The notes under the pieces: model-generated
What the model was told of the DNA's origin: nothing
What the model saw: only the letters and a program-made list of their open reading frames with translations
Databases searched by the model: none
Shown: piece after piece, positions 35,251 to 38,687 of the stretch
Layout of the letters: each line of letters begins with the position of its first letter
Numbering within the stretch: the stretch's first letter is position 1
Translations under genes and position numbers: made by a program
Origin: an uncultured archaeon
Lineage (GTDB): Archaea > Thermoproteota > Nitrososphaeria > Nitrososphaerales > Gagatemarchaeaceae
Direction of reading: 5' to 3'
Length of the DNA: 64,000 nt
Assembly (NCBI GenBank): GCA_963799775.1
Contig: CAWCYD010000003.1
Span: 1,632,001 to 1,696,000 of the forward strand

Positions 35251-35917
35251 ATGCTCCACTTTGTGATTGGGGAAGCGGCGCTCGAGCTGATTCCGGAGGA
35301 GCTCTGGCGGGGCACCCTCGGTCAAGAGCGACGCGGCCCGGCGCGACCTCAGGCCCGGGGACATCCTACTTGACAGGAGCACCCACCACTCCGCAATGCT
35401 CAAGCTTCAAGACGGGTATCGACGGGGAAGGCCAGACCTCGTCCACCTGACTCTGCTCAGCGTGACTAGCACACCCCTTCACCAGGAAGGCAAGGCCCGG
35501 GTCTACATCCAGACGATCGACGGGAATTCTCTTGAGTTCGGCGAAGGGGCGCGCCCACCCAAGAGCTACGCGAGGTTTAGGAATCTCATGGAGAAGTTGC
35601 TTGCAGAGAAGCCTGAAGAGGGCCTCGTGAGGGTGAGCGAAGAGACACTCCCGGAGCTCCTGAGAAGGATAGGGACAGACGACGCCGTGGGACTGTCAGT
35701 TCAAGGTGCCTCCATGCCTCTCGAGTCTCTCGCAGGCGACCTTGTGCAAAGAAAGAACCCTGCTGTCGTGGTGGGAGGGTTCCCAAGGGGGCATTTTCTC
35801 ACGGGCGACCTGAAGGCCTTCGACAGGCTGGTGAGGATCGACCAGCGGGCGCTCGACGCGCATGTCGTGGCGGCACGGGTGGTCTACGAATTCGAGAAGG
35901 CTCTCCGCTCGAAGTGA
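35251..35917 (+). CDS. nep1: 16S rRNA pseudouridine N1-methyltransferase Nep1 (frameshift ~35310)
   Basis: 'EAALELIP','LLDRS.HHSAM','RRGRPDLVH','VGGFPRG.F'. Confidence 0.92.
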
Positions 35918-35922
35918 TTACT

Positions 35923-35928
35923 AAAAAA
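35923..35928 (-). terminator. T6 terminator candidate for the tnpB/omega-RNA transcript
   Basis: AAAAAA on + strand = TTTTTT on - strand, ~60 nt past the putative guide. Confidence 0.45.
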
Positions 35929-35954
35929 GGGGGATATTCGGGGTCAGTGCTCGC

Positions 35955-36006
35955 GCGGTCGTCACGCTAAATCCCCTTGGAGGGGAGACGGTCTAGGACT
36001 TCAGCC
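35955..36006 (+). pseudogene. Degenerate intron-less 5' half of tRNA-Gly (its antisense is the putative TnpB guide)
   Basis: GCGGTCGTC (35955-35963) = tRNA nt 1-9; GGTCTAGGACTTCAGCC (35990-36006) = spliced D-loop to C32; 26-nt hairpin-containing segment between. Confidence 0.75.
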
Positions 36007-38508
36007 GTTTCTAAGACACGTGCCGCCACTGTCTCATTCGTTGCATTAGCACCATGTTCAGTCCGACCTGCTCCACTGACGTCAGGCTTGTCAGAGGAAT
36101 ACAGGTATTCATTCCTCAAATGGTGCCAAGAGGCATCCGCACTCACGGCAAACGGATGGCCGCAAAGGCGCAGTCCACGGCAGAGGATTGCCAGAGAAGC
36201 AAGCCTGTCTCTGTCGTAGTCTACACCGCATTTGACGCACCTGCTCACAGCCCAAGTTGGGTGCTCTAATTTGCCACCGCAGACGGGACATTCGGATGAA
36301 GTCCCTCTTGGGTTCACGTAAAGGGTGCGATTTTGAGATTTGTAATCAATCATAGATTGGTAGAGTCGGTATGGCCACCGATTGAGATAGGTCCTCAACC
36401 GCTTGCCCTTCGGTTCTTCGTCGCTCCTTATCCCTTTGAGATTCTCGAAAATGAAAGACGCGCCGGAATAGGTTCTGACCATCTTGGTTGATAGCTTGTG
36501 AAGTGTATCTTTGATTCTCCCATGTCGTCGTGTTCTGCATATTTATGCTGGACGGAAGGGCATTCTCCCATTCGCTCTCTTTGGAGCATTGTGGCTTTCG
36601 CGGTAGCCTGTGGCCCAACCTGTTCCACGCGCTCTGAGGCGCAAGAACCTAACGGGCTCTAGCTCTTTTTGCTCAGCCGTCCAGCCTGAAGGTCTGTTCC
36701 TCCTTCAGCATGATGTACATGGCCCGCATGAGCTTCCTCGCTGCGGCCACGATCGCCACCTTCTCGCCCCTCCTCTTCGCGAGCTCCACGTAGAATTTCG
36801 TTATCGAGGAGTCGCACCACCTCACGTGGACGCGCGTGCACTGGACCATTATCCAGTTCAGCATCACGCTCCTCGTCCTGTTGGGTGTCGAGTGGCTCTT
36901 GTCCGCCGACTGTCTCAACCCTGGCACGAGGCCTGCGTACGAGCAGAGGTGCTCGTGGTCGGCGAATCTGTTCACGTCTGCGATCTCGCTCGATATCAGG
37001 AGGGCCGAGTAGTGGGAGACGCCGGGTATCGTGACGAGGAGCTTCGCATACTTGTCCTGCAGGGCGACCCCCTTCACCTTCAGGTCGAGCTCCCCGATCT
37101 TCCCGTCCAGGAACTCGATGGTGTCCATGTAGTCGTCCACCGCGTCGATGTGGAGGGACCATCAGGAACTTCCTCCCTTCCCGCGTGAAGACGTCGCCCT
37201 CGTGCTTCACCCATCGCTTCGCGAGCTCCGCCTTCACCTTGCTCTTGAACCCGGTGCGCGTCTCGACGAGGTGATGCCTCCTCCTGACGAGGTCCCTGAC
37301 CTCCCTGGTCTTCTCGTCCGGCACGTAGGACTCGGGTATCATGTCCGCCCTCAGCAGGTCCACCAGCGTCCTCGCGTCGACCTTGTCCGTCTTCACCTTT
37401 GCGTAGGCGATGGCCTTCACCATCAGCGGATGCGCGACCTTCACGTCGTATCCCTTCTCCTTCAGCACGTCGCGGATGTGCTGATGGTTGTACCCGGACT
37501 CCATGACGACGCTCGCATTTGTGCCGTCGAGGAATTCCAGTATCTTTTCTTCGTCCTTCGCCACCTTCGACTCCCTCATCACCTTTCCAGCGTCGTCCTT
37601 GAGGACGCACTGTATCGATTTCTCGTGCAGGTCTAGCGCGGCATACATGCTAGTGGCTGTGGCTTTCCTTCGCCTTATCTTCTGCGAGCATCCCACCTGT
37701 TCATTTGTCTACCTCTCGTCTGCCTAAGCTTCTTCTCCCTCTTTTGCCGGTTGTTGACATGAAGCTGAATCGCCCTTCTCCTTCTTGAGAAGTCGTTCTG
37801 GATTCGGACAATGGTCGCAATTGTCTTTGTGTTGACCTGTTCTAGCTTCGTCCCGTCAGTTTCCAACCGCGCCACAGTCGAGTCTACTGTTGCGAAATTC
37901 AAGTCTGAAGCAACTAACTCTAGCCCGAGAGCCTTGTTCGCGATGCCAACCGCAAAAGTCAGACAGACTTTGCGATCGGTAATTAGAAGTTCAGCAGGTC
38001 GGCCTGATGAATATCCCAAGAAGTGCTTGTTCTTGGTGTTCATTGCAATCCAAGTGTACTTCTTAGGTTGAAGAGTCACTCTGACTCGGCTATCGACAAC
38101 CTTCATCAGTTCTCCATCAATTCTCATTGCAAGCTTCTTCACTTCAGGGATTCTTACTTCCCCGTGGTTGTTCTTTCTATGTGACCTTAGTATTGCCACT
38201 GCAGCTCTGCAAACTGGGTTGATGTGGTGCCTCGCATAGTCATACTTTGTGTAGAACCAGCCCTTTATCTCCCTCCTTAACTGAATAGGCGACGGCATTC
38301 TGCCTTCTCGAATCGCGTATCTAGATGCCTCGACTAGCGAGTACTTGATTGCCTCCTGCATATCTCTGAGATAGGCGAGCAGAAGATCGTCGGGTTCGTA
38401 ATACCAGGAGATTGTTCTCTTTTCTCCGCTAGATTTCCAGGGGTGTATTTGTATTAACCTCCGTCGATGCTTTCTAACAGGCTCAGGCCCTATAAGCACC
38501 CATTTCAT
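35967..38508 (-). CDS. tnpB: TnpB (IS200/IS605, Cas12f-like RNA-guided nuclease) interrupted by IS110 at 36517/37698
   Basis: RuvC-I 'VASDLNF', RuvC-II 'FIFENLKGIR', 'VNPRGTSSECPVCG...CVKCG', RuvC-III 'DRDRLASLAI'; halves rejoin in frame as RQMNR-IKDTLHKLS after removing the IS. Confidence 0.92.
35990..36170 (-). ncRNA. Putative omega RNA (reRNA) of TnpB with 3' guide
   Basis: Overlaps tnpB 3' end; terminal hairpin GAGACA-GTG-GCGG-CAC-G-TGTCTT then AGAAAC, then guide GGCTGAAGTCCTAGACC; 5' boundary is a guess. Confidence 0.6.
36545..36665 (-). ncRNA. Putative bridge/seek RNA of the IS110 element
   Basis: Two parallel internal loops: GGTT-CT-T-GCGC-CTCAGA-GCGC-G-TGGAACAG (matches target) and CCAC-AA-T-GCTC-CAAAGA-GAGC-G-AATGGGAG (matches donor junction). 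Confidence 0.8.
36673..37648 (-). CDS. IS110-family DEDD recombinase (frameshift ~37160)
   Basis: 'ALDLHEK','VVMESG','KTDKVDA' DEDD RuvC; 'TIPGV','SYAGLVP..RQSA' Tnp domain with catalytic Ser; 'VAAARKL'. Confidence 0.93.
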
Positions 38509-38591
38509 GCCATGGGTTACTTTCGTGGCATTGTGGAGGATTGTTACCCGCCCAAACCCTCAATATCCCGAATAATTCCCCCTCTCATCGT

Positions 38592-38687
38592 GCGGTCGTC
38601 GTCCAGTCTGGTCTAACGTCTATAGACGTGCCAAAAGGACTTCAGCCCTCCAAGCTGGCAACCAGGGTTCAAATCCCTGCGACCGCA
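38592..38687 (+). tRNA. tRNA-Gly(TCC) with 21-nt D-loop intron (38615-38635)
   Basis: Acceptor GCGGTCG/CGACCGC, D-stem GTCC/GGAC, anticodon arm TCAGC-CCTCCAA-GCTGG, T-arm CAGGG-TTCAAAT-CCCTG; BHB: TGGT/GCCA helix with CTA and AAA bulges. Confidence 0.88.

Follow-up and report, generated by a model that had tools for sequence, protein, structure and literature searches.

RNA-guided recombinases of the IS110 and IS1111 groups have been described and tested in bacteria. According to the accessible text of the reports on IS621 (Durrant et al. 2024, PMC11208160; Hiraizumi et al. 2024, PMC11208158), its bridge RNA carries a target loop and a donor loop, each of which reads both DNA strands with an overlap at a 2-nt core, and works with a DEDD recombinase that has a catalytic serine; the guides co-vary with natural sites. 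The locus reported here appears to share this plan, and differs from IS621 in that the RNA lies downstream of the gene, the guide order is reversed and the core is AG rather than CT. [quoted passage not shown] 2024 (PMC11187229), with the top-strand-complementary segment 5' of the bottom-strand one and the two overlapping at the insertion point, as is the case here. The C-terminal GL-P----S form and site-specific insertion are shared as well, and ISEc21, of the same family, is reported there to target the transposase gene of another insertion sequence, just as the copy studied here sits in a TnpB gene. Subterminal inverted repeats of 7-17 bp are a hallmark of IS1111; compared with the IS1111 elements, our locus has an archaeal host, weak subterminal inverted repeats, and a motif serine followed by A rather than G.

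A further likeness is offered by ISPpu9, for which the accessible part of the report (PMC12288879) describes an RNA module, Ssr9, downstream of an IS110-family transposase gene, along with extra gene-less copies that were explained by circles of the module alone. Ssr9 was reported not to be required for transposition, whereas here the module appears to be the guide RNA itself, and the extra modules, found at another copy of the element, are in tandem, joined at a site matching the left target guide. In archaea, 662 recombinases were noted among homologues (10.1101/2024.06.21.599552). Our literature search found no guide RNA described for a Nitrososphaeria element; the supplements of large mining studies may hold some, and the table of predicted bridge RNAs for ISfinder elements by Durrant et al. 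may already cover archaeal elements.

The locus lies in a 64,000-nucleotide stretch of DNA (the window) from a soil archaeon of the order Nitrososphaerales, and is very probably a guide RNA gene (bridge RNA/seekRNA) belonging to an IS110-family insertion sequence (IS) with an IS1111-type layout. An earlier note, made from the sequence of the window, had proposed a programmable recombinase guide in an archaeal host. The host was correctly recognized, and the guide RNA reading is supported by the protein family, the precise junctions, the guide matches at three sites, and the covariation of guides with flanks and within stems. This is a well-supported new example of a bridge/seek RNA and not a new mechanism.

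Insertion sequence and interrupted gene

The IS, its target flanks, its transposase gene and the gene that it interrupts were delimited as follows.

36517..37696, minus strand: whole IS110-family insertion sequence, 1180 bp, set by its junctions; left end GTGGGATG..., right end ...CATGGGAG
37697..37704, minus strand: left target flank ATGAAC plus core AG, from junction comparison
36513..36516, minus strand: right target flank AATC, pairing with GGUU via one G-T, from junction comparison
36517..36524, minus strand: IS right end CATGGGAG, equal to the left donor arm plus core, from junction comparison
36673..37648, minus strand: transposase gene, frameshifted, with DEDD/RuvC-like and Transposase_20 domains (Pfam)
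37699..38508, minus strand: N-terminal part of the interrupted TnpB gene, in frame with the C-terminal part after IS removal
35967..36516, minus strand: C-terminal part of the interrupted TnpB gene (PF07282, Cas12f1-like TNB)

With a slash marking the boundary, the left junction reads ATGAAC-AG/GTGGGATG, in which the core AG occupies 37698-37697 and the IS starts at 37696, and the right junction reads CATGGGAG/AATCAA, the final IS base being 36517. The genome holds three copies that differ at only 4 of 1180 positions, which indicates recent spread. The AG core was present at both junctions in all three, and their sites share the form GG(A/G)AC-AG-AA(C/T)C, with one left-flank mismatch at the window copy. 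Insertion is thus precise and site-specific, with a short core, no terminal inverted repeats and no target duplication of greater length, as is characteristic of IS110 elements. A related element (locus L006) is 86% identical in nucleotides to the window IS across the full IS length. The repeat search listed no terminal pair for the window IS; by eye, left-end ATGCTCG (positions 6-12) can be set against right-end CGACAT preceding GGGAG, a weak subterminal repeat that is perfect over CAT/ATG (3 bp) and matches at 6/7 with one indel. Relatives carry subterminal inverted repeats of 6 bp in L008 (GAACAT/ATGTTC) and 10 bp in L111.

The window IS is a precise insertion into a TnpB gene, and its removal restores a single open TnpB frame, as read by eye. 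The N-terminal part alone gave no family match in Pfam or NCBIfam, and the C-terminal part scored 49.1 bits against NF040570, below the 100-bit cut-off because it is a fragment. A BLAST search of the same genome for an empty paralogous TnpB site, with each flank queried on its own, matched the window alone.

Transposase

Judging from its sequence, the recombinase is an IS110-family DEDD enzyme, with matches to PF01548 (72.8 bits, cut-off 29) and PF02371 (61.4 bits, cut-off 21.3) and, for the intact copy, to the NCBIfam model NF033542 'IS110 family RNA-guided transposase' (208.6 bits, cut-off 140). Of its relatives with solved structures, the IS621 and ISCro4 transposases match best, the similarity to IS621 being distant (E 1.7e-9 over parts). 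The C-terminal motif GLVPGLRQSA, seen in copy 2 (L002) and 10 close-relative loci, keeps the serine followed by A, while L007, L008, L011, L013, L136 and L139 have SG rather than SA; the available text of PMC11187229 gives SG, TG and occasionally TA for the IS110 family.

The window copy of the gene is broken by one extra T at 37161, which is missing in copies 2 and 3, L006 and one related transcript contig, and copy 3 is frameshifted by an extra G. These frameshifts in two of the three copies would suit a relic, that is, a genuine guide RNA family of which no element in this genome is still active. We consider this unlikely, as copy 2 retains an intact 324-aa open frame (L002:1662-2636), the near-identity of the copies points to recent spread, and the guide RNA is identical in copies 1 and 2.

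Architecture of the proposed guide RNA

The loop, hairpin and junction strings quoted in the earlier note are all present on the minus strand. Together with comparative evidence they outline a candidate RNA with the following parts.

36547..36685, minus strand: full guide RNA as proposed, bounded by the two arms of the 9-bp closing stem, 139 nt, ends putative
36558..36662, minus strand: conserved two-loop RNA core (covariance-model match, 106.8 bits)
36644..36649, minus strand: GGUUCU (loop 1, 5' side), right target guide, complement of top-strand AG+AACC
36629..36642, minus strand: hairpin capping loop 1, GCGC-CUCAGA-GCGC (100% of cells paired, 2/4 pairs compensatory)
36620..36626, minus strand: GGAACAG (loop 1, 3' side), left target guide, same sequence as left flank and core, hence pairing to the bottom strand
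36591..36595, minus strand: GCCAC (loop 2, 5' side), right donor guide, pairs to GTGG at the IS left end
36574..36587, minus strand: hairpin capping loop 2, GCUC-CAAAGA-GAGC (97.6% of cells paired, 2/4 pairs compensatory)
36565..36571, minus strand: AUGGGAG (loop 2, 3' side), left donor guide, same sequence as the IS right end and core

The closing stem pairs GCUGGACGG (36685-36677) with CCGUCCAGC (36555-36547), so that the 5' part of the RNA reaches into the last codons of the transposase gene, and loop 1 is held by GCCC (36657-36654) paired with GGGC (36616-36613). The span first proposed, 36545-36665, does contain the core, but the closing stem extends the RNA upstream of that start. At about 105-140 nt the RNA is also not unusually compact, as had been supposed, when set beside the seekRNAs of 82-96 nt in the accessible text of PMC11187229. 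The RNA and a long non-coding region follow the gene, and within the RNA the top-strand guide precedes the bottom-strand one, which is the IS1111 layout. The order of right-flank before left-flank guide had been noticed earlier and is indeed present, but it is the published norm for IS1111-type seekRNAs in that same text and therefore not new.

How readily such words arise by chance was gauged by shuffling the 156-nt non-coding end 50,000 times at the mononucleotide level. The 6-nt left-flank word occurred in 3,997 shuffles, the 7-nt donor word in 591 and both in 41; all four guide segments in their real order and spacing occurred in none. The minimum-free-energy fold of the single sequence (z = -2.11) lacks the two-loop structure, the prediction of which rests on comparison between relatives rather than on that fold. 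A small GGCU/AGCC hairpin between the loops (83% paired, without real covariation) is not claimed.

Conserved RNA family

A covariance model (R1) was built on 4 sequences, the seed being limited in this way because MAFFT misaligned L008 and L011, and the remaining sequences were aligned to it. R1 matched RNA 3' of the gene in L006, L007, L008, L010 and L120, all from genomes of related Nitrososphaeria; of 27 metagenome loci, 19 gave a match as well. Stem cells were 93.4% paired, with compensatory change in 8 of 13 pairs; none of 500 shuffles showed covariation as high, and slid controls were 16-55% paired. The 9-bp closing stem has compensatory variants in L129/L139, L133, L010 and L008. These comparisons point to a structured RNA with conserved stems in the long non-coding end, as in bridge RNAs and seekRNAs. 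The G-U and G-T pairs seen in the stems and in guide-flank pairings fit RNA pairing. The window RNA could not be aligned to any Rfam 15 family: a search of 35900-38600 at E up to 10 returned no relevant match, and 9 related loci gave nothing at the gathering score. The target sites coincide with no tRNA or known RNA.

The position of the RNA within the element is not constant. In L111 a homologous structure lies at the opposite element end, ahead of the gene and some 45 nt into the element, and sister Nitrososphaeria elements have the same RNA family upstream of the gene with the guide order unchanged.

Target loop and insertion sites

Loop 1 fits all three genomic sites. The perfect site is that of copy 2, CGGAAC-AG/AACCAC, an 11-nt fit at the copy whose transposase gene is intact. 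The window site, ATGAAC-AG/AATCAA, had been put forward as the target and the guide does fit it, but imperfectly: the core and 4/5 of the left flank match, and the right flank includes one G-T; the third site, CGGGAC-AG/AACCCA, fits as well. The check that other insertion sites should match loop 1 was therefore borne out by two further sites in the genome.

The proposed covariation of loops with insertion sites across homologs was also found. L006 appears naturally retargeted, with guide UUGACAG at left flank TTGAC-AG and the rest of loop 1 unchanged, L129 carries CCGUU as another natural variant of the loop 1 words, and the right target guide co-varies with its flank in L129 (AACGGC), L133 (AAATCA) and L008 (AAACCA). 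Across 14 sites, the left guide agreed with its own left flank at 63/70 positions against 31.4 expected, a value reached by none of 100,000 permutations, although this all-site version overstates the case, as relatives are not independent and the L002/L124 and L125/L139 sites are probably orthologous. Because orthology and kinship inflate that version, we also give the result with the one worst site per distinct guide, 44/50 against 21.0 expected, again reached by none of 100,000 permutations. The right guide agreed at 88/120 positions against 77.8 expected (reached by 115 of 100,000 permutations) and, in the conservative version, at 35/48 against 27.4 (1,243 of 100,000).

Before permutation, L137 (=L124), L131 (=L128), L140 (=L122) and L125 (=L006) were dropped as same-locus duplicates, and L117/L118 for having the same repeat target as L008. 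L136, L126 and L139 were entered in the left-flank table by eye, and L126, with 4 visible nucleotides that all match, was excluded from the permutation. L134, L135 and L138 have left junctions on contigs that stop before the RNA. Poor fits were the L007 left flank (2/5, a decayed copy) and the right flanks of L122 (2/6) and L127 (3/6). A left junction was sought and not found in L010/L119, and neither junction of L120 agreed with its guides. Altogether, these comparisons argue that the loop 1 guides co-vary with insertion-site flanks, as in bridge RNAs and seekRNAs.

The stem-rich structure begins within the last codons of the gene and its single-sequence z-score is modest, features that would also suit a 3' untranslated structure (a terminator, stabilizer or regulator of the transposase message) with only incidental flank matches. 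A purely regulatory structure would not be expected to track insertion sites, and here the loop words change along with the flanks, in a four-word arrangement that the shuffles never reproduced; we regard this explanation as extremely improbable.

Donor loop and element ends

The words of loop 2 match the sequence formed when the ends of the excised element abut, CATGGG-AG-GTGG. Where the right end is CATAGGAG (L129, L139) the left donor guide becomes AUAGGAG, and in L011 an AUAGGUG guide accompanies the right end ATAGGTG; the left donor guide thus follows the right end across three sequence states. Support for the right donor guide comes from 4-5 nt, of which 4/5 match at the window copy, and from a single co-varying case, L136, with GCCAU and left end ATGGC. 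The second loop therefore appears to match the joined ends of the element, more firmly for the left donor guide than for the right.

Proposed mechanism

For a guide RNA of this kind we infer transcription, RNA-protein binding and the chemistry as follows. The RNA would probably arise as the 3' portion of the transposase transcript and fold into a stem-closed form with a target loop and a donor loop, each capped by a hairpin. In the manner of the target loop, GCCAC and AUGGGAG in the donor loop would recognize the ends of the excised element where they abut. By homology to IS621 and ISEc11, the DEDD/serine recombinase would then swap strands at the common AG core, and insertion would leave no target duplication beyond that core. 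The window copy, with an intact RNA and a frameshifted recombinase, would rely on the intact copy at another place in the genome.

Two metatranscriptome runs, both from a single study, yielded 3 contigs of related transposase genes, 90-99% alike. No contig covered 36500-36991 in this search, which was of assembled contigs only, so that the absence means little. It is nonetheless what would be seen if the 3' end acted as DNA, either through single-stranded words that pair with the target, as in IS200/IS605-like elements, or through hairpins that serve as transposase-binding sites; the guide words also lie within about 150 nt of the element end, and flank matches are identical whether the words act as DNA or RNA. 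The enzyme, however, is not of the HUH type and belongs to a family in which RNA guidance has been experimentally shown in both subgroups, according to the accessible text of PMC11187229 and PMC11208160. Additionally, the stems contain G-U pairs, and the upstream structure of L111, at the other element end, is easier to reconcile with a transcribed module than with a binding site at the element end. We judge action as DNA to be highly unlikely, and a guide RNA remains the preferred reading.

To our knowledge, Nitrososphaeria archaea, including ammonia oxidisers, are without genetic tools. The locus offers an intact recombinase (copy 2), a perfect target, about 10 naturally retargeted guide variants and a conserved RNA core of about 105 nt, and a genetic tool for these archaea could be developed from such a native programmable recombinase.

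Tandem modules at copy 3

A look-alike of the target lies inside the element, near the end of the transposase gene.

36691..36700, minus strand: internal target look-alike GGAACAG/ACC, near the transposase gene end, corresponding to the junction of the copy 3 RNA modules

Copy 3 carries three RNA modules in tandem (227495-228028 of contig C2 of the genome), joined exactly at this internal GGAACAG, and the tandem junction matches the left target guide at 7/7 positions. It is conceivable, though we hold it to be rather doubtful, that in this archaeal lineage the guide-RNA module is a separable unit, moved and multiplied by the element's own recombinase. The upstream RNA of the sister elements may look as if reprogramming of the donor loop had shifted the element ends around the circle. 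At the end of each tandem module, some 22 nt ahead of the junction, is an AT-rich box (GCATAAATATGC; 36548-36537 in the window copy). It could serve as an archaeal TATA box that drives transcription of the following module or, across the circle junction, of the transposase gene.

The element, its copies and its relatives

The host genome (G000; 2.47 Mb in three contigs), that of a Nitrososphaerales archaeon, carries three copies of one IS110-family element, and no match to PF01548 was found in it beyond these copies. The transposase matches PF01548 in its N-terminal part and PF02371 in its C-terminal part. The copy in the window interrupts a gene for TnpB, an RNA-guided nuclease family from another mobile element, the C-terminal part of which matches PF07282 and NF040570. 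The features are listed below.

35967-38508: interrupted TnpB gene
37696..36517, minus strand: insertion sequence of 1180 bp, delimited by its junctions
36662..36558, minus strand: conserved RNA core of three elements
36685-36677 with 36555-36547, minus strand: 9-bp closing stem, GCUGGACGG with CCGUCCAGC

With a slash marking each junction, the left junction reads ATGAAC-AG/GTGGGATG and the right one CATGGGAG/AATCAA. A single TnpB reading frame is regained once the element and one AG are removed; a paralogous empty TnpB site was not found in the genome.

The three copies vary at four positions. The frame of the window transposase is broken by an extra T at 37161, present in this copy only and accompanied by one substitution. 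Copy 3 has gained a G of its own and lost one nucleotide from the RNA tail. The intact copy is copy 2 (L002), and its product of 324 aa, counted from ATG, scores 208.6 bits against NCBIfam NF033542 ('IS110 family RNA-guided transposase'; cut-off 140), with the IS621 and ISCro4 transposases as the closest solved structures. In the motif GLVPGLRQSA (window about 36890-36920), alanine comes after the conserved serine of the C-terminal domain; this SA form is also found in copy 2 and in 10 loci of close relatives, and the SG form in L007, L008, L011, L013, L136 and L139.

The nearest transposases are archaeal, with bacterial ones following at 30-44%. The element of a Candidatus Gagatemarchaeum MAG (L006) shares 90% amino acid identity, and 86% nucleotide identity across the entire element; other near relatives come from Nitrosotenuis (L007), Nitrososphaerales (L008) and Nitrosopumilaceae (L010). 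Across the class Nitrososphaeria, matches at E up to 1e-20 were obtained in 41 of 401 genomes, G000 counted.

Predicted structure of the guide RNA

The earlier note had proposed a compact guide RNA downstream of the recombinase, and all of the strings that it quoted are present where it placed them. The first core element is a 4-5-bp stem (GCCC/GGGC) around loop 1, the target loop, with a cap hairpin GCGC-CUCAGA-GCGC; the second is a linker with conserved GCGAAAGCCAC; the third, bearing donor loop 2, is a hairpin GCUC-CAAAGA-GAGC flanked 5' by GCCAC-AAU and 3' by G-AAUGGGAG-AAUGC. The 5' arm of the closing stem reaches into the final codons of the transposase gene; from closing stem to closing stem, the RNA is predicted to extend about 139 nt.

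In a 21-sequence alignment, 93.4% of cells were paired and compensatory changes occurred in 8 of 13 pairs, values equalled by none of 500 shuffles, while slid controls were only 16-55% paired. Compensatory variants of the closing stem occur in L129/L139, L133, L010 and L008. With a covariance model trained on four sequences, the RNA was located 3' of the transposase gene in L006, L007, L008, L010/L089/L119, L120 and L087, and was also detected at 19 of 27 metagenome loci coding for close relatives.

Agreement between guides and insertion sites

Loop 1 carries GGAACAG and GGUUCU, the latter being the reverse complement of AGAACC, and copy 2 (CGGAAC-AG/AACCAC) is thus in perfect 11-nt match with it. 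The sites of the window copy (ATGAAC-AG/AATCAA) and copy 3 (CGGGAC-AG/AACCCA) are one or two positions off. The loop 1 guides proposed from the window held at the other insertion sites of the genome, with this small latitude.

The expectation that guides co-vary with insertion sites across homologs was also borne out. L006 has the same loop 1 except UUGAC for GGAAC, in line with the TTGAC-AG of its left flank. Over 14 distinct sites, the left guide (the 5 nt that precede the core, on the 3' side of loop 1) and the left flank of its own site were identical at 63 of 70 positions, against 31.4 expected with flanks shuffled among elements (at least 63 in 0 of 100,000 permutations), a test that overstates the result because some of the sites (L002/L124; L125/L139) are likely to be orthologous. 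With one, the worst, site per distinct guide, agreement was 44/50 versus 21.0 (0 of 100,000). The right guide (5' side) is less variable and gave 88/120 versus 77.8 expected (115 of 100,000 permutations), or 35/48 versus 27.4 (1,243 of 100,000) in a conservative version; clean co-varying cases are L129 (AACGGC), L133 (AAATCA) and L008 (AAACCA). Misfits were seen at the left flank of L007 (2/5) and at the right flanks of L122 (2/6) and L127 (3/6); neither junction of L120 agrees with its guides, and the left junction of L010/L119 was sought and not found.

The 3' word of the donor loop tracks the right end of the element, as AUGGGAG with CATGGGAG, AUAGGAG with CATAGGAG in L129 and L139, and AUAGGUG with ATAGGTG in L011. 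The 5' word GCCAC pairs with GTGG, and its sole co-varying case is L136 (GCCAU with ATGGC). Altogether, these comparisons of sequence support a programmable guide RNA, whose transcription, protein binding and activity are predicted.

Two metatranscriptome runs yielded three contigs of related transposase genes (90-99% alike) and none over 36500-36991, where the RNA lies. Some further junctions were observed. A contig of a related element in metatranscriptome run X1 crosses the left junction (window 37699) with a different flank, TTACC before AG, which equals the left guide UUACC of L127, itself on a contig without its own left junction. Three identical L008-type copies (L116, L117 and L118; genome G302, contig C10) all lie at GGCTCTGT-AG/AAACCATCATAGC..., and as the right flank is repeated over more than 40 nt, this type seems to be directed to the end of a different repeated element.

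Relation to known systems

In IS1111-type elements, as described by Siddiquee et al. (PMC11187229), a non-coding region lies downstream of the gene, and the seekRNA segment complementary to the top strand is 5' of the bottom-strand one, an order reversed in the IS110 type. Durrant et al. (PMC11208160) report bridge RNAs predicted in 93.0% of IS1111 and 85.7% of IS110 ISfinder elements. The window element shares the IS1111 layout and guide order. Its subterminal inverted repeats are weak, and its serine motif has SA in place of SG. The right-flank-first order put forward earlier is thus present, as the known IS1111 pattern and not as a new feature. We would class the element as IS110 family with an IS1111-type layout rather than as a proven member of the IS1111 clade. 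It adds a well-documented, newly described archaeal RNA-guided recombinase system of a kind already known.

On the 3' side of loop 1, the core is followed by two bases (window 36617-36619) that agree with the first two of the element's left end in each of three variants, GU/GT, AU/AT and AC/AC (window, L136 and L111), so that loop 1 may read the left junction once it is complete. The arrangement resembles the handshake guides described for IS621 (PMC11208158), but involves the other strand.

Behind copy 3 lie three tandem guide-RNA modules of 176, 177 and 177 bp (G000 C2:227495-228028; L003:2508-3037), joined as ...GGGAG/ACCTTC exactly at an internal GGAACAG/ACC (window 36700-36691). This internal sequence, close to where the transposase gene ends, agrees with the left target guide at 7/7 positions, and the arrangement suggests recombination at a target look-alike within the element. 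A solo module elsewhere in the genome was not found with the covariance model (5 matches in all). The separate Ssr9 modules reported for ISPpu9 (PMC12288879) are a related case.

Close relatives conserve an AT-rich palindrome, GCATAAATATGC (window 36537-36548), which lies some 22 nt short of the right end. As a putative archaeal TATA box it might drive transcription across a circle junction or into the tandem module that follows; alternatively, it may simply form a hairpin.

Weak covariance-model matches lie upstream of the gene in five more distant Nitrososphaeria IS110-family elements (L111, at 1307-2703; L094; L105; L106; and L104, from the unpublished genome G283). The guides of L111 agree with its junctions AGTTG-TG/ACGACATG and ATGGATG/TAAAT. 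Together with a subterminal inverted repeat of 10 bp, they fit an element that has its RNA in the left end and its guides in the order seen in the window.
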